A stretch of 64,000 bases of DNA, from positions 128,001 through 192,000 of the IMG/VR virus record IMGVR_UViG_3300011678_000001; one strand, 5' to 3'. The stretch is from a virus. Its lineage: Duplodnaviria; Caudoviricetes. Under the pieces are notes generated by a model. It was not told the origin of the DNA, did no database searches, and saw only the letters and a list, made by a program, of their open reading frames with translations. The position numbers and the translations under genes are program-made. Of the stretch, positions 3,717-51,831 are shown piece after piece (positions within the stretch are counted from its first letter, which is position 1; each line of letters begins with the position of its first letter).

Positions 3717-4114
3717 GGAATATTTCCTTTGTCAAGGTGGTAGAGCGCCCACCACAGGTAGAAGAAGATAGCAGGGTAGTTCAGGCCACAATCAACCATG
3801 TGCTGCCACAGGGGTTTGTGGGTGTACTGCAATTTGTTCTGGCTGAGTTTGAGCAAGCCATTGACCTGATCACGCGGGATCTTACGCCAGCTCTGGTACA
3901 TCCAGAAGTAAAACCGTCCGGCGTTCCAGAAGGGAATGCGACCGACCCGGTATGTCCAGGTTTGTCCGGCGGTGTGAAACTCACCGGTCACTTGTGGGTA
4001 GCGGGTGCTGTGGACAATGTACGCAATGAGGACAGTGCCGATGAATGAAGCGACACTGATTAGAAAGGGGTCAAACATTTTAATTACGCCTGAAAAAGGG
4101 TGGTAGGGATTCAT
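3701..4114 (-). CDS. Hypothetical membrane protein
   Basis: Hydrophobic N-terminal segment FLISVASFIGTVLIAYIV. Confidence 0.55.
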   Translation of the reverse strand: MNPYHPFSGVIKMFDPFLISVASFIGTVLIAYIVHSTRYPQVTGEFHTAGQTWTYRVGRIPFWNAGRFYFWMYQSWRKIPRDQVNGLLKLSQNKLQYTHKPLWQHMVDCGLNYPAIFFYLWWALYHLDKGNIPWPTI

Positions 4115-4127
4115 AGAATCCCTATCC

Positions 4128-4141
4128 GGTGTAATTATTTA
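4128..4141 (-). promoter_or_regulatory. Candidate phage RNAP promoter (TAAATAATTACACC)
   Basis: Identical 14-mer at 49800-49813; resembles the phiKZ TAC-ending promoter consensus; intergenic and upstream of a minus-strand operon. Confidence 0.5.
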
Positions 4142-4142
4142 A

Positions 4143-4415
4143 TCAGTCGTCGAGTCTGTTTTCTTCCTCTTCGTCTTCATCATGAATGATCTGATCCATC
4201 TCTTGACGGTCGCGCTCGTCCGAGATCTTTTCCATGTAGTAATAGTAGATCTGTTCTTTGGTCATGCCATCGAACGTTCCTGCTTGCGCAAGCTCATCAT
4301 AGTCGTGCTGAGATTCGGGTTCGAACTCATCAACGCTCATGTCGAGTATATCTTTCATGATGCTATTCCTTTTCTGGTCTACATATCCGATCGAGCCAAG
4401 CCCGTCGGAATTCAC
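4143..4415 (-). CDS. Small acidic hypothetical protein
   Basis: Very D/E-rich ORF; true start probably MKDILD. Confidence 0.55.
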   Translation of the reverse strand: MNSDGLGSIGYVDQKRNSIMKDILDMSVDEFEPESQHDYDELAQAGTFDGMTKEQIYYYYMEKISDERDRQEMDQIIHDEDEEEENRLDD

Positions 4416-4884: not shown

Positions 4885-5503
4885 CTCGTTTCATGTGCGG
4901 TATTCGTTCTGACCGCGGTCGCTTCACCCGTGCATCGAACGCCCGCAGAATATTGTCATTGTAGTACGCATTGTGATTCTCGACAGCCCGCGCACCGAAG
5001 GTACTGTTCTTTGCGATCGCCTCAGAATACAGACCGGGAGCTGCCATGGATTCTCTCAACTGACGGCTGATTTCCTCCTCTTTCTCCTCGTCTTCAATCT
5101 GACGCATCAGATCGCCCAACCTGCGGCCGATCTTGGCGCCTTGGTGAATCATGCGGTCCGCTTCCAGTGTATCGAGCGGCGATAGGGAATCGATGAGCAC
5201 CGTGGGTGCGTCTGGATGACTTTCGTGCGCGAAGAAGGATTCTCGCCAAGCCTCAACCGCCTCAGGCGATACAGCATGCTCCGTCAAACCCTCTATCTTC
5301 TTGCACAGTTGTTCGTCCTCAAAAGGGTCAGATTCAAGGTTGTAGTAGAGTTGTGTTTTAGACGCAGGCGTGTGGGCGAACAACCCGAGGCAGGACATCA
5401 GGGGTGTGCCGTGAAGGAGAACACTCGTGTCCATGACCGCTTTGACTGAGTCCATTGACGGACTGACCGTAACCAGTTTATCAAGAGGGTTGAATTTATC
5501 CAT
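4859..5503 (-). CDS. Hypothetical protein
   Basis: 214-aa ORF in operon. Confidence 0.6.
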   Translation of the reverse strand: MDKFNPLDKLVTVSPSMDSVKAVMDTSVLLHGTPLMSCLGLFAHTPASKTQLYYNLESDPFEDEQLCKKIEGLTEHAVSPEAVEAWRESFFAHESHPDAPTVLIDSLSPLDTLEADRMIHQGAKIGRRLGDLMRQIEDEEKEEEISRQLRESMAAPGLYSEAIAKNSTFGARAVENHNAYYNDNILRAFDARVKRPRSERIPHMKRGGYRGRNR

Positions 5504-5611: not shown

Positions 5612-5887
5612 TTAGCCGCCAGTATGCGGCTGTGTTAATTCAACGATGGGGCCGGTACCCCATTGATCAAACCGACGCTTCAGGTGCACGTAGCGCTCCG
5701 TCATCGTCAGTTGAGCAGTCAGACGTGAATGGCCCGGATCGCTTGTTGGCGTGTTGGCCAGTACACTGCGGTACCACTTGATATCCTCTTCCATGTCGAT
5801 GATCTCGCAACCGTGCAGAGAATGGCTGTTGAGTTCGTCGTATTGGGCAGGGGTCAGAGGCCCGGTGTTTTCAACATCAGTTTCCAT
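5612..5887 (-). CDS. Hypothetical protein
   Basis: Start METDVEN overlapping the end of the upstream gene. Confidence 0.55.
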   Translation of the reverse strand: METDVENTGPLTPAQYDELNSHSLHGCEIIDMEEDIKWYRSVLANTPTSDPGHSRLTAQLTMTERYVHLKRRFDQWGTGPIVELTQPHTGG

Positions 5888-12032: not shown

Positions 12033-12321
12033 CGCTATCTTCAGATAGGTTCGTTAGGCCTACCCCGCCTCTCAGTAGCAGGCAGCTGCATGTCGCCATG
12101 CAGGCGAGATCATATCACGCTCCACTTCCTGTGGAGCCCTCCCATTTCGAGGTCACTTGACCCCTACTCTACTCACCTTGTTTATCCATCATGGCAAGGT
12201 TTTCGATGATCGTTGAACGTTCCCTTGTACGGGGCTTCGCTGCTGATTGCCTCAGTGAGGGTTCCCAGCAATTAGAGAGGTTATTCAAGATAGCTTACGC
12301 TACCAGGGCGCACTTTACTTT
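12033..12321 (-). mobile_element. Group I self-splicing intron (289 nt, no internal ORF) in thyA
   Basis: 5' exon ends in U (CAG CGU) and intron ends in G. P AAUUGCUGGGAA, Q AAUCAGCAG, R GUUCAACGAUCA, S GAUAUGAUC; P1 GCGU/GUGC. Removal restores YQR-SADVFLG in frame. Confidence 0.93.
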
Positions 12322-13077
12322 ACGCTGGTACAGCTGGCAAGACAAACGACGCTTCGGCACGCCCTGGTCGTCCAAGTACTGATCGATCATCTGACCCAAG
12401 GCTTCGCCCTTGATGTTGTCATCGAGTTCGCACAACCAATTGGAGTACTCGCTATTGTGGCCGTCGTAACCTGGCTGAAGGATCTTCTCACGCTCTTGGC
12501 GTGTCAGCTTGACTGAGTAGAACTGGAACAGGGCATGACACGGCGGCAGGGCCATCTGATCCACCAAGGCAGGGTTCCACGCACTGACGATCAGGCGGCG
12601 ACTGTCTGGGTTCTTCTTCAGCATATCGATCAGGTTGGTAATCTGATCAATGCCTTCGTTACCACGACCCTTACACTTCGGACACGTCCACTCATTGAAG
12701 GAGACGTCGCCGAAGTCTGCATCGTTGCACTTACCCGTTCCACCACAGGTTTCGCACTTAACAGGGGTGGGCCAGCTGCGCCACTGGGCGCCATAGACCG
12801 GACCGAGTTCGCCGTTCTCATCAGCCCATTCGTCCCAAATCCGAACACCGTTCTCTTTCAGGTAACGAATGTTGGTGTCACCCTGCAGGAACCACAGCAG
12901 TTCGTGGATGATCGACTTCAGATGACACTTCTTGGTGGTCACGAGCGGGAATTGTCCTCCGCTCAGGTCAAACCGCATCTGATAACCAAAGACGCTGTAC
13001 GTTCCCGTGCCAGTTCTGTCTTCCTTGAATACACCATTGCTTCTAACGTGCCGCATCAAATCTAAATACTGCTTCAT
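12322..13077 (-). CDS. thyA: Thymidylate synthase, exon 1
   Basis: [45 protein letters not shown]. Confidence 0.95.
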
Positions 13078-47468: not shown

Positions 47469-47880
47469 TTCCGTGAAGTGTGATCGTTACCGATCCCTAG
47501 TGTTAGCAAGGCATTGTTGTTATCGCATACTGTAGTCGTACGCTGTCTTTTATAACTCCCGCGCATACACGCCCGCTGCCTACAAAAGAGACAGCGGGCG
47601 TACAGAGGCGGTCCGGTAACTGTTCTACCGTAGTCACATGCCGCGTCTGACCCGGAAGCCAGTCGTACGACAGCCCATCTGGGGACACCAGCGCTACGCA
47701 GAGGATGGGCCTCTCTACGGCGGTTGACTGAGCGTGCACTCTCAGCCGTGTGTTTAGATTCCATAGGCCGGTGAAGGGCTAATAAATTAGTCCTACCCTT
47801 ACTTGTCAGACAGAGGTTTCTCAGGCCGCACGTCTGCTTTCTCTTCTTGGGCCTCGCCGTCTGAGTAACGGCTCCCGGAA
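47469..47880 (-). ncRNA. Unclassified large structured RNA (~415 nt)
   Basis: Closing helix UUCCG-GGAG/CUUC-A-CGGAA; many hairpins including a 16-bp stem (47566-47604) and a GUAA tetraloop hairpin (47482-47495); G-U pairs mostly favour the minus strand. Confidence 0.6.
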
Positions 47881-47888
47881 AACTGATT

Positions 47889-48000
47889 TCTCGATGGCGG
47901 GACTTGAACCCACAACCTCCGCAACAGCACTCCGCCAGCATACCCGAGCTTCGCGGGGCACAACGGACCATACGGTGTTCTAACTTAGAACTACATCGAG
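47889..48000 (-). tRNA. tRNA-Pro-like RNA with anticodon loop replaced by a 47-nt extension (non-decoding tRNA-like element)
   Basis: Acceptor CUCGAUG/CAUCGAG-A73, U8A9, D-stem GUUC/GAAC, anticodon stem CCGUA/UGCGG, variable AGGUU, T-arm GUGGG-UUCAAGU-CCCGC. Confidence 0.75.
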
Positions 48001-48007
48001 AAAGGGG

Positions 48008-48589: not shown

Positions 48590-49015
48590 TTAATCCACCA
48601 TTTCCAAACGTTCATTGAGGAGCTCGATCAATGCTTCAGTGTGCTTTCGCTGACGCATCGTGATCGAGTAACGGGGGTGTAGCGGTTGCATCTGGTTCAG
48701 CTCGGCAAACAAGGACGCAAGTTTGCTCTCCAGCTGAGCGCGCTCGGCCAGCAGCTTCAACGCCCAATCGGGTGTGTCCGGCTGATCGCCCAACGGCAGG
48801 TTGGTCTTCTTAAACACCTCTGCAGGGCACCAGCTGATGTAACCGTCGTGGGCATGGTGATTGCTCTCACCGCCGTCGAGGTACTCTACCAGGAAGCCCG
48901 GTTCTTCCAACACTTCACCTGCCAATCGCGGCTGCCCGAGGTAGAGGTTATACTCTTCACGGGTCATCGGTCTGGCCTTGACAATTTTAACGCCTACGTA
49001 GTGCTGGAATTGCAT
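48590..49015 (-). CDS. Conserved phage protein (YxGxK...GYxSWxP domain plus crAss001_48-like helical hairpin)
   Basis: YVGVKIVKARPMTREEYN...GFLVEYLDGG...GYISWCPAEVF, then WALKLLAERAQLESKLASL...LLNERL. Confidence 0.65.
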   Translation of the reverse strand: MQFQHYVGVKIVKARPMTREEYNLYLGQPRLAGEVLEEPGFLVEYLDGGESNHHAHDGYISWCPAEVFKKTNLPLGDQPDTPDWALKLLAERAQLESKLASLFAELNQMQPLHPRYSITMRQRKHTEALIELLNERLEMVD

Positions 49016-49042: not shown

Positions 49043-49780
49043 GGGGAGGCCCTGTGGCAGCCCTGTCAGATGCACCGACGGGAAGATGCGACAGGGAACG
49101 GGTTAGATGGACCCTCTACCGGGCCTCCCCTGTTCTGGACGTTGTGGGCGGGAACCGAAACCCGCTCTTCTGCGAAAGAGTCTTCACCGGCATGCGACCG
49201 GCTAGCTTAGGTGCATTGCCCTTGCCTTCTTTAACAGCGTTCATGCGTAAACTACCACAACGAACTGGGTTGGAAACCCTGCAACCACACCAACGGCTGC
49301 GATCTCGCTGCCCACCTATTAGGCTGCACGTAGCTGCCCAGGGACTGGTCGTTGGCTGCAAGGTTTCCAATTGGGAGGAGGGACTGTGCGTCAAGCGGAC
49401 TTGGGGAGGAGTCGTCCCTTCCACGCTGGCTGCTGAAGACCATTGTGAAAACCACTCTTTACACGCAGTCCCTCCAAAGGGATGGAGGGGTTGAGACGCA
49501 GGTGATGGCACCTGGGGGAGGGTTCCATGCCGAGCTGCTGAAGGCTCTGCAAACCACCACCCTAACCTCAACCCCTCCAAAAGGACGGGAGAGCTGCCTG
49601 ACTGGCCGAAGGGGACCAATCCAGCACCAGCCACCGGAAAGCCGTGAAGAAAACCGGGTGGCAACTCTCCCTAAACTGTTTAAGCCAATCGTCAGAACGG
49701 CGGTCACCTCTTCAGCGTACATATCCTGCACACTGCTGACGATCGGAGTGCTTCGAGAGCACCCAATGGTAGGGTGCTCT
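49043..49780 (-). ncRNA. Array of seven tandem, individually closed structured RNA domains plus a 5' hairpin
   Basis: Terminal stems at 49043-49130, 49140-49262, 49270-49370, 49377-49475, 49483-49579, 49587-49671, 49685-49746, with 6-13 nt linkers; G-U wobble pattern indicates the minus strand; no credible CDS. Confidence 0.75.
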
Positions 49781-49799
49781 GTCGCATAGATTACACCTT

Positions 49800-49813
49800 G
49801 GTGTAATTATTTA
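49800..49813 (-). promoter_or_regulatory. Candidate promoter for the RNA array
   Basis: TAAATAATTACACC identical to 4128-4141; followed by TATG at ~49785-49788. Confidence 0.5.
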
Positions 49814-50266
49814 CGATTCTTCAGCGGTCTCGATGTGAGCCTCGTAGTATTCCACCAGTTGACGGTAGGTGTAGCGATCCAGCACGCCTTCTTTGATGGT
49901 GGCCAGTGTACGGTCACGACGGACCCCATCGCCGAACATCAGCGATTCCAACGTGTCACAAACCGTGAAAGAGCGGAACCGGCCTTCGCCGCAGTTGACG
50001 TAGATCAGGCCCTTGTCTTTGTGTTCTTCCACAAAGTCGAAGATCTGTTTGGCGATCTCTTGGTTCATCGCATACTGCTTCTGATCCTCGGTGATGTGGT
50101 CACCGGGGAAGAACTCCACCCGCAGCAAAGGGCGCTTGTCTTTGTTCGGAATCGCAGCGCCGTCACTGTAGCGGTCACTGATCGAGATCAGAGGGGCGTC
50201 GTGCGGGATCTTCTGGACGGCTTGTTTGCTGATGTTGGTCAGACGCAGGGTGGTCGAAGTGCTCAT
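49811..50266 (-). CDS. CX5R (PTP/dual-specificity-type) phosphatase
   Basis: LISISD, IYVNCGEGRFRS catalytic loop. Confidence 0.75.
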   Translation of the reverse strand: MSTSTTLRLTNISKQAVQKIPHDAPLISISDRYSDGAAIPNKDKRPLLRVEFFPGDHITEDQKQYAMNQEIAKQIFDFVEEHKDKGLIYVNCGEGRFRSFTVCDTLESLMFGDGVRRDRTLATIKEGVLDRYTYRQLVEYYEAHIETAEES

Positions 50267-50903: not shown

Positions 50904-51350
50904 CTACTTCTCTCCTAAGCAGGCAATGAATGAGGCTTCAACAAACGGCAACATCGACAGGTAGACGTAGCGAATGTCGTTGTCCCAATCTAAACCGCCG
51001 TTACCACATCCCATGGGCGGGAGGGCAATGGTCTTGAACTTGTCGGGATGGCGGTTAACCAGATTCACCAGCTTGTTAAAGTTGTGGATCACCAAGTCGC
51101 GAGGAGAGGGGTCTCGCCAATCGAGCTTGGTTGGCACTAAGAGGTATTTCACACCGCCGTGCTGATACAGAATGAACTGCGTCGGGTCAAGACCCTGATA
51201 CATCTTCTTGTAGTGCTTGTACAGTCCTGGGATGGTGTCCCGTGCAGTCTTGGCAACGCCGGCCCCCATTGCCCCGCGCATGTTGGTGGTCACGATTTTG
51301 GTGTCAGCCTCAACGCTGAACAGGTCTTGTGCCAGCTGAGTATATGACAT
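50904..51350 (-). CDS. Macrodomain ADP-ribose hydrolase (DarG/TARG1-like)
   Basis: DLF...NMRGAMGAGVAK, PTKLDWRDPS, IALPPMGCGNGGLDW; start MSYTQL at 51350. Confidence 0.85.
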   Translation of the reverse strand: MSYTQLAQDLFSVEADTKIVTTNMRGAMGAGVAKTARDTIPGLYKHYKKMYQGLDPTQFILYQHGGVKYLLVPTKLDWRDPSPRDLVIHNFNKLVNLVNRHPDKFKTIALPPMGCGNGGLDWDNDIRYVYLSMLPFVEASFIACLGEK

Positions 51351-51831
51351 TGTCAATCGCCTTGATAAACTCTGCAACGAACAGGGCGCGCAGACTGTCC
51401 TTAGTGCAAGGGATGCGAATCGTCCAGACAAAGGTCGGGGTACGCTTCTTACCCGGATAGCGGTGACGCACAGACATCGACACCTGTCGAGCCCAGATGG
51501 CCGTCTCAGGGTTTTCCATGAACTCTTCAACCAACTGGACATAGACGTCCGAGAAGGCAGCGAGGCCTGGTTCTGTCACCAAGGCGGCGACATAGAGGAA
51601 TGTCTTATCGGTACCCGGATGACAGCAACAGCAATCGGTGGTGGCAATGCCTGGAATGCTGTTCAGTCGATCGATGATGGGGCGCATGGCCCGATCAAGT
51701 TTGGGGTAACCGGCAGCCACGAACTCCTGGTTAGCTTCGAGCTGGCGCTGGAACAGGAGCGGATCAGAAATGAAATGGGTCGGCACGCAGAAAGGCTCCT
51801 TATGAGAAAGCATATTGAAGTGATTGATCAA
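51310..51831 (-). CDS. Hypothetical protein, TYW3-like N-terminal motif
   Basis: LDRAMRPIIDRLNSIPGIATTDCCCCH resembles TYW3 D..I..L...IN......TTSSC.GR. Confidence 0.5.
   Translation of the reverse strand: MINHFNMLSHKEPFCVPTHFISDPLLFQRQLEANQEFVAAGYPKLDRAMRPIIDRLNSIPGIATTDCCCCHPGTDKTFLYVAALVTEPGLAAFSDVYVQLVEEFMENPETAIWARQVSMSVRHRYPGKKRTPTFVWTIRIPCTKDSLRALFVAEFIKAIDNVIYSAGTRPVQR

Follow-up and report, generated by a model that had tools for sequence, protein, structure and literature searches.

What is held in 795 nucleotides (nt) without a credible gene, lying between two co-oriented protein genes of a giant phage? The window analyzed here is a 64,000-nt stretch of DNA, bases 128001–192000 of a complete 269,790-base pair (bp) phage genome in IMG/VR (record IMGVR_UViG_3300011678_000001), and the segment in question lies on its minus strand, between the stop codon of a phosphatase-like gene and the ATG of a DUF2829/crAss001_48-type gene. 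The genome is that of a giant nucleus-forming, phiKZ-type jumbo phage; it encodes a tubulin-family (PhuZ-like) protein, and its nearest named relative is Pseudomonas phage pPa_SNUABM_DT01 (DT01 below). An earlier note, made from the letters of the window alone, had described the segment as an array of seven self-contained structured RNAs, cut from one precursor and acting as antisense guides or protein decoys.

The domains of the array are real: they are non-coding RNA of the minus strand and resemble no catalogued family. Because of their N-CC tails, the body of one window module and the bodies of two more found in relatives, they make up a group of RNAs that cannot decode and are tRNA-derived or tRNA-ended, in a phage without an ordinary tRNA. 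Our preferred reading, to which we give a probability of roughly 55%, is that of independent tRNA-scaffold RNAs, transcribed together as one array and released by the tRNA-maturation enzymes of the host.

Folding of the array

Positions 49746 to 49043 (minus strand, as are all window features below) are tiled by seven self-closed domains of 62–123 nt, called U1 to U7, each with a closing helix of 8–18 bp. The linkers between them are, in order, 13, 7, 7, 6, 7, and 9 nt long. All of the helix pairs quoted in the earlier note were found in their minus-strand places. Compared with shuffled sequences, the whole region (801 nt) has a folding z-score of −7.45 when read as the minus strand, as against −4.86 for the plus strand. 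Taken singly, the minus-strand z-scores of U1 to U7 are −4.25, −3.16, −4.20, −4.05, −5.02, −1.70, and −4.84, and plus-strand folding is clearly poorer for U1, U2, and U5. The folding energy of U6 is not significant by itself; that module is supported by covariation.

A scan of the window array against Rfam 15, C4 and GOLLD/ROOL included, gave no match that reached the gathering score and nothing above noise when E was extended to 10. ARAGORN called no tRNA anywhere in the genome, the window included. No CRISPR-like repeat was found in the array, as the earlier note had held, the sole direct repeat being a 16-nt sequence present in two copies at the ends of U3 and U4. Two open reading frames (ORFs) of 184 and 158 codons overlap the array, but both are broken in five of the related loci described below (L003, L005, L016, L017, and L018), in keeping with the absence of a credible coding sequence.

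Covariation and strand

Compensatory pair changes occur in every module family with enough variation: at 7 of 23 pairs in U1, 6 of 29 in U2, 16 of 33 in U3 and U4 together, 6 of 31 in U5, 11 of 27 in U5b (a module of related loci), 8 of 35 in U6, and 12 of 27 in U7. Nearly all alignment cells at consensus pairs are in fact paired in U1 (114 of 114) and U6 (244 of 245). For U7 and U3, none of 500 column shuffles reached the observed covariation score or paired fraction, and sliding the pairing partners by 1–3 columns lowered pairing from 84–91% to 39–54%. The RNA structure is thus under selection. Where the consensus pairs of all families depart from Watson-Crick pairing, the cell is G-U in 112 cases and A-C in 11, a ratio somewhat biased by having folded the minus strand; together with the unit energies it indicates that the RNA is read from that strand. 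The claim that the minus-strand G-U pairs reflect selection at the RNA level is borne out to this extent.

Related loci

Nucleotide searches with the array region (megablast and blastn) against 50,697 phage records gave no match, nor did single-protein searches for the locus in IMG/VR; an alignment-based protein search was needed there, and the same search in metagenome contigs gave no match. Relatives were collected through the flanking phosphatase-like protein, and three more through a sequence pattern for U7. In 10 related loci, the slot that has the phosphatase-like (or a macro-domain) gene on one side and the DUF2829-type gene on the other is non-coding and modular, holding 1–9 modules from at least 11 families.

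In the window, a 5′-terminal hairpin (H0) is followed by U1 to U7. L003 has H0, U1, an additional module UX, U2, U3, U5b, U6, and U7; L005 is the same except for U5 in place of U5b; and L016 matches L003 with a further module, tL, between H0 and U1. The order in L017 is H0, tL, U1, U2, U3, U5b, U5, U7. In L014 and L011, H0 is followed by a 176-codon ORF in place of U1, then by UX, U2, U3, U5b, U6, and U7. The remaining loci are smaller, with a variant hairpin H0′: L018 has H0′, U3, and U7; DT01 has H0′, a U1-like module, and U7; and L019 and L023 have just H0′ and U7. Module order is therefore fixed while unit number varies, and the loci (L003, L005, L014, L016–L019, L023, and DT01) differ by whole modules gained or lost.

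The 176-codon ORF (L014:3563–4090, also in L011), between H0 and UX, matches no Pfam family. Its insertion in this one lineage shows that the RNA slot also takes protein-coding cargo.

Resemblance to tRNAs

Bacterial RNase P recognizes its substrates by N-CC after a stacked helix and by U at position −1. In five of the seven window modules, a tail of the N-CC(A/C) type directly follows the closing helix: UCCC in U3 and U4, CCCA in U5, UCCA in U6, and GCCU in U7. In U2, the helix is followed by GUCC, with N-CC offset by one. An N-CC tail is present in 62% of the 47 distinct array modules. Among 291 control closed domains, predicted with an identical procedure from other parts of the genome, it is present in 6%; for U at −1 the proportions are 60% and 24%.

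The bodies of some modules point the same way. U6 (49140–49262), 123 nt long, is by its sequence and fold a remodeled tRNA. An acceptor of 8 bp is followed by UA and a D-like arm of 4 bp; a branched insert then takes the place of the anticodon arm, and a T-like arm (GCGGG-UUUCGGUU-CCCGC) and U-CCA come last. There is no 7-nt anticodon loop on a 5-bp stem, and neither ARAGORN nor Rfam calls U6. UX carries a canonical GUCGGUUCGACUCCGAC T arm. The tL modules of L016 and L017 score 41–42 bits with the Rfam tRNA model (RF00005, cut-off 29); their anticodon arm is a 4-bp stem with a 3–4-nt loop, and ARAGORN reports one of the two copies as “tRNA-???” with anticodon (gc) and misses the other. The statement that the array is not tRNA thus stands as far as ARAGORN and Rfam calls in the window go, but not for the remodeled U6 or for the tL modules of the relatives, which pass the Rfam threshold.

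Might the array then be a decaying tRNA gene cluster, a set of phage tRNA relics without present function? In its favor, the genome has no canonical tRNA, DT01 has tRNA-Asn and tRNA-Asp genes 1.4 kb away, and tL, UX, and U6 all keep tRNA parts. Relics would not, however, be expected to show compensatory helices and invariant loops across lineages in which the flanking protein is only 35–70% identical, and most of the modules have no tRNA interior at all, so this origin seems very improbable.

A helix with an N-CC tail is also reminiscent of the RNase P-matured antisense RNAs C4 (phages P1 and P7) and CI (P4), with which the earlier note had compared the array, and C-rich loops (CCUCC) could pair with ribosome-binding sites of phage or host transcripts in trans. 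The acceptor-like helix, the N-CC 3′ end, and the mostly U residue at −1 do fit RNase P-type maturation, but the likeness stops there: no C4-type match was found in Rfam up to E = 10, and homology to C4 or CI is lacking. The proposal of antisense guides fared poorly. The phage genome contains no complement of at least 16 nt (with at most two mismatches) to the conserved cores, and matches in a Pseudomonas putida genome are at chance level, comparable to a reversed-pattern control. We consider an antisense role highly unlikely.

Module structures

U1 (49685–49746) is 62 nt long, with an 11-bp closing helix, two inner hairpins, and no N-CC tail. The 13-nt linker between it and U2 (49672–49684), CUUAAACAGUUUA, appears to mark where a tRNA-like module was lost. 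At this spot L003, L005, and L016 have UUUAAAUU, the 130-nt UX with its canonical T arm, and UCUCAGUUA, and the window linker equals what remains of this sequence when UX is taken away.

U2 (49587–49671; 85 nt) is cloverleaf-like, with three inner hairpins, a conserved core, GGUGCUGGAUUGGUCCCCUU, and a 12-bp closing helix beginning GGGAGAG. The helix sequence GGGAGAG plus G resembles tRNA-Ser (GGAGAGA or GGAGAGG, plus G).

U3 (49483–49579) is 97 nt long with a 14-bp closing helix. Its conserved elements are a CAGC hairpin loop, CA(N)GGAAC, and CCCUCCCCC, and the covariance model R2 finds it at the array locus only. In P. putida, an 85-nt class II tRNA, probably tRNA-Tyr, has exactly the same acceptor stem and discriminator as the outer 7 bp and next base of the U3 helix (GGAGGGG..CCCCUCC-A); L003, with GGAAGGG, does not keep the match. 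This acceptor likeness and that of U2 are not kept in all relatives and could be chance.

U4 (49377–49475; 99 nt, 10-bp closing helix) scores 71 bits with R2 and aligns with U3, and both are bounded by the repeated ..CCCUCC-UCCC end that makes up the 16-nt junction. It was seen in the window genome only, being absent from L003, L005, L016, and L017, and is a tandem duplicate of U3. U5 (49270–49370; 101 nt) has a closing helix of 17–18 bp and a conserved GGGCAGCGAGAUCGCAG hairpin. U7 (49043–49130; 88 nt) is a three-way junction closed by 10 bp.

The near-perfect stems of U3, U4, and U5, with 14–24 stacked bp, and the A/U-rich 3′ halves of the linkers bring to mind a different kind of processing, by RNase III or RNase E with stabilizer hairpins, as between the early genes of phage T7. 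The stems would then be signals for cleavage and stability only. There are however no genes between these hairpins that would need separating; the inner multi-branch structures and loops are conserved with covariation; and tRNA-like modules are present. On balance this explanation looks unlikely.

Putative promoter and 5′ hairpin

The promoter-like element TAAATAATTACACC (49800–49813) overlaps the stop codon of the phosphatase-like gene and resembles the middle-promoter motif of phiKZ. The middle promoters of that phage carry AAanTTACc at about −24, and transcription by the non-virion RNA polymerase starts at the G of TATG (PMC4666361). The related loci have CGTAAA(A/T)AA(T/G)TAC(C) at this site, directly after the upstream stop codon, and the same order follows in all of them: about 12 nt, GTAAT(C/G)TATGCGA(C), then H0. 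The TATG motif is at 49785–49788 in the window, and (C/G)TATGCGA(C) is kept in all relatives. From this arrangement we infer a transcription start at the G at 49785, which would give the RNA a paired 5′ end. H0 itself (49749–49786, with its core AGAGCACCC/GGGUGCUCU at 49780–49756) stands right behind TATG in every relative, and its stem has compensatory changes.

The earlier note had pointed to a promoter-like 14-mer directly upstream of the array and shared with a site near 4128; the element is conserved in all relatives, and TAAATAATTACACC does have one other copy in the genome, at 4158–4145, with TCTATG following in both places. At that second site (window 4112–4158), a hairpin (GGAUAGGGAUU/AAUCCCUACC) has TATG in its loop and CCCUUUUU behind it, an arrangement that resembles a terminator. 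Since this copy sits at a terminator-like hairpin, the motif running from TAAATAATTACACC to TCTATG may be a combined terminator/promoter junction. The strict phiKZ pattern AA-N(1–2)-TTAC..TATG is not enriched in the genome (1 site, against 3.8 expected), so the promoter reading rests on conservation in the relatives.

No terminator-like site was found within or after the array. The transcript therefore probably runs into the DUF2829-type gene, which would place that gene on the same transcript, and the array is also the 5′ leader of the gene.

U7 and the downstream gene

U7 is the module most strictly tied to this gene. The covariance model R1 finds exactly one copy per genome in five complete genomes, and one in each of 10 loci. 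In the window it ends 27 nt before the ATG, and wherever the flank is available its end lies 10–30 nt ahead of the gene's ribosome-binding site. Little or no variation is seen in its flanks, AACA-GGGG and CCCC-GCCUAU, or in its loops, AUCUA and YCCCGUCG. A first search pattern for U7 was too strict and gave no match; a looser one gave 21 matches in metagenomes and 11 in bacterial genomes, all false by the covariance model except L040. U7 was thus absent from bacterial genomes and from upstream of the DUF2829 genes of other phages, so it is not a general DUF2829 leader and has no bacterial counterpart.

These features favor an explanation in which the whole 770 nt are an unprocessed cis leader, a structured 5′ untranslated region controlling the stability, translation, or localization of the DUF2829-type mRNA, in which U7 would serve for sensing or regulation, perhaps in the manner of a riboswitch. 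Upstream there is just one promoter-like element, and the gene is not preceded by a terminator; U7 is universal, single-copy, and always close to the ribosome-binding site; the minimal loci (L019, L023, L018, and DT01) retain H0 and U7; and the invariant single-stranded flanks and loops of U7 are aptamer-like. Against this, whole modules come and go with the gene unaffected, a leader would have no evident use for N-CC tails or tRNA bodies, and U7 does not accompany the DUF2829 genes of other phages. Riboswitch tests of U7 found no Rfam class, no terminator, and no conserved pairing with the ribosome-binding site: pairing through the C-rich loop was considered and set aside, as L005 does not have it. 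A purely cis-acting leader is a possible alternative, though clearly less probable than the release of separate RNAs. U7 may form the structured 5′ end, or the leader, of the DUF2829-type mRNA, with the variable modules ahead of it as cargo.

Flanking genes and nearby structured regions

The upstream gene (49811–50266) encodes a 151-amino acid protein of the CX5R cysteine-phosphatase-like type, in which the CGEGRxRS motif is kept; the orthologue in DT01 carries the annotation “putative protein tyrosine phosphatase.” The downstream gene (48590–49015) encodes 141 amino acids, with a DUF2829-like N-terminus and a crAss001_48-like (PF21825) C-terminus, and belongs to phrog_872. Its tblastn matches are annotated DUF2829; the PF21825 match is significant in the L003 orthologue and weak in the window protein. 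DUF2829 is the family of the anti-Thoeris sponge Tad2. Neither flanking protein has a relative of solved structure that could be recognized by sequence. Two genes upstream of the array is a macro-domain protein (window 50904–51542), and in L023 a macro-domain gene (L023:978–1445) comes immediately before H0′ and U7.

Further structured elements lie nearby. About 1 kb downstream of the array, past the DUF2829-type gene and some small ORFs, there is another tRNA-like element (47889–48003), with an acceptor, a D arm, a T arm (GUGGGUUCAAGUCCCGC), and a long insert at the anticodon position, followed by a structured stretch of about 415 nt (47469–47880). The block has 88% identity over 552 nt to L005:5941–6494, where no gene is called, and is partly retained in L003, L014, L016, and DT01; ORFs of 170 and 135 amino acids within it match no family. 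In DT01 (locus L002), similar closed modules (4940–5351; z = −5.05) lie directly upstream of the tRNA-Asn/tRNA-Asp pair, and an unannotated tRNA-like element with a canonical T arm (5763–5835) lies just downstream of it. Elsewhere in the window, at 12086–12331, Rfam identifies a group I intron (RF00028; 53 bits against a gathering score of 50, E = 1.2e-10).

Proposed release and possible function

What we infer of promoter, processing, stability, and function can be put together as follows. The phage promoter-like element (..TTAC.., about 12 nt, ..TATG) would start an RNA near 49785, with H0 first as a protective 5′ hairpin, and this RNA would run through the seven self-closed modules into the DUF2829-type gene. 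The modules are tRNA-ended, with a long acceptor-like helix, then N-CC(A/C), and usually U at −1, and U6 in the window, like tL and UX in relatives, is visibly a rebuilt tRNA with its anticodon arm replaced or truncated. Host RNase P would cut just at the 5′ start of every closing helix, and the stable RNAs of 60–125 nt would be finished by trimming of their 3′ ends and addition of CCA, much as tRNAs punctuate a polycistronic transcript. U7 would stay with or beside the mRNA, forming its structured 5′ start or its leader, or would protect it. Release by RNase P, trimming, and CCA addition is the most likely course given the tRNA-like ends and bodies of the modules. The released RNAs would be unable to decode.

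Several points weigh against this scheme. U1 lacks an N-CC tail, U2 has one in only some relatives, and about half of the tails are CCC, not CCA. Closing helices of 14–18 bp exceed the 12-bp acceptor/T stack, so that some could be RNase III substrates. The promoter motif is rare, with just two sites in the genome, the second of them overlapping a terminator-like hairpin, and the strict linkage of U7 to the downstream gene also fits a purely cis role. In addition, no CCA-adding enzyme, Ro/TROVE protein, or RtcB was found in the phage genome, and all processing would thus need host enzymes, outside the phage nucleus.

As to what the RNAs might do, the conserved exposed loops (YCCCC tracts, CAGC, AUCUA, and CCCGUCG) suggest a protein or small-molecule partner. 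A sponge for Rsm/CsrA was considered and rejected; loop GGA motifs are too few and are not conserved (the U1 loop has GGU in L005). The genome encodes no TROVE domain and the array has no Rfam Y RNA match, as might be looked for in a Y RNA (YrlA) acting with Ro/Rsr. The macro-domain, phosphatase, and DUF2829-type neighbors, together with a module turnover like that of accessory anti-defense loci, indicate that the purpose of the array is probably host takeover or counter-defense. A more specific version, which we offer tentatively and think doubtful as it stands, is that the modules are tRNA-scaffold counter-defense cassettes, either decoys offering an acceptor, CCA end, or tRNA body to immune enzymes or sponges for immune nucleotides, and are swapped as anti-defense genes are, beside the neighboring macro-domain, phosphatase, and DUF2829-type proteins. 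For the decoy variant, U3 would be an example, with its copy of the acceptor end (stem and discriminator) of a class II tRNA from Pseudomonas; U7, for its part, might sense an immune signal and switch on the downstream gene.

If the modules prove to be such decoys or sponges, they would be a new class of anti-defense agent; if the modules are only processing or stability devices, tRNA punctuation would be operating in a bacterial virus. The locus adds new structured-RNA families, 11 or more of them, that are supported by covariation; its modules end in the manner of tRNAs and turn over whole among close relatives, and its address in the genome is fixed, within a probable anti-defense gene cluster of nucleus-forming jumbo phages. 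The minimal array in the cultured phage DT01 makes these questions directly testable.

Comparison with known systems

C4 of P1 and P7 and CI of P4 are hairpin-closed RNAs with a 3′ tail that makes them RNase P substrates. The array modules share the helix-closed form and the 3′ tail, but they are multi-branched and number seven instead of one, and they have neither an Rfam match nor antisense targets. In mitochondrial tRNA punctuation and in the tRNA-miRNA units of murine gammaherpesvirus 68, tRNA-like elements serve as processing handles for host enzymes. There, as presumably in the array, non-decoding tRNA-like elements release RNAs from one precursor; those systems are eukaryotic, however, and in the array the “cargo” lies inside the tRNA-like closing helix itself. 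GOLLD and ROOL are likewise large, ornate, phage-borne non-coding RNAs near tRNA-type elements, but they are single large folds, in contrast to autonomous modules with presence/absence variation, and their covariance models do not match the array.

PhiKZ has non-coding RNAs derived from untranslated regions, one of about 100 nt from the 3′ untranslated region of PHIKZ298 and one of about 180 nt from a 5′ untranslated region (PMC8545117). These also come from mRNA untranslated regions in a nucleus-forming Pseudomonas jumbo phage. They are simple two-hairpin species, however, and no array of about 700 nt with tRNA-ended modules is described there.

Another near parallel comes from T4. Its RNAC and RNAD are associated with tRNA-type maturation. 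They are small stable RNAs of the T4 tRNA cluster (species 1 and 2), and their function is still unknown (PMC9697503). Like them, the array modules are phage-encoded, non-decoding, structured, presumably stable, and tied to tRNA-type genes. Unlike them, they come as seven to nine different modules in a row, within a protein gene's leader, in a phage that lacks canonical tRNAs; their content varies between relatives, and they have no sequence or model relationship to the T4 RNAs. We have accordingly filed the array with phage tRNA-cluster-type stable RNAs, as a member comprising many new RNA families. Non-decoding stable RNAs of the RNAC/RNAD type have gone unexplained for decades, and the array gives a richer, comparative case in which to approach them.

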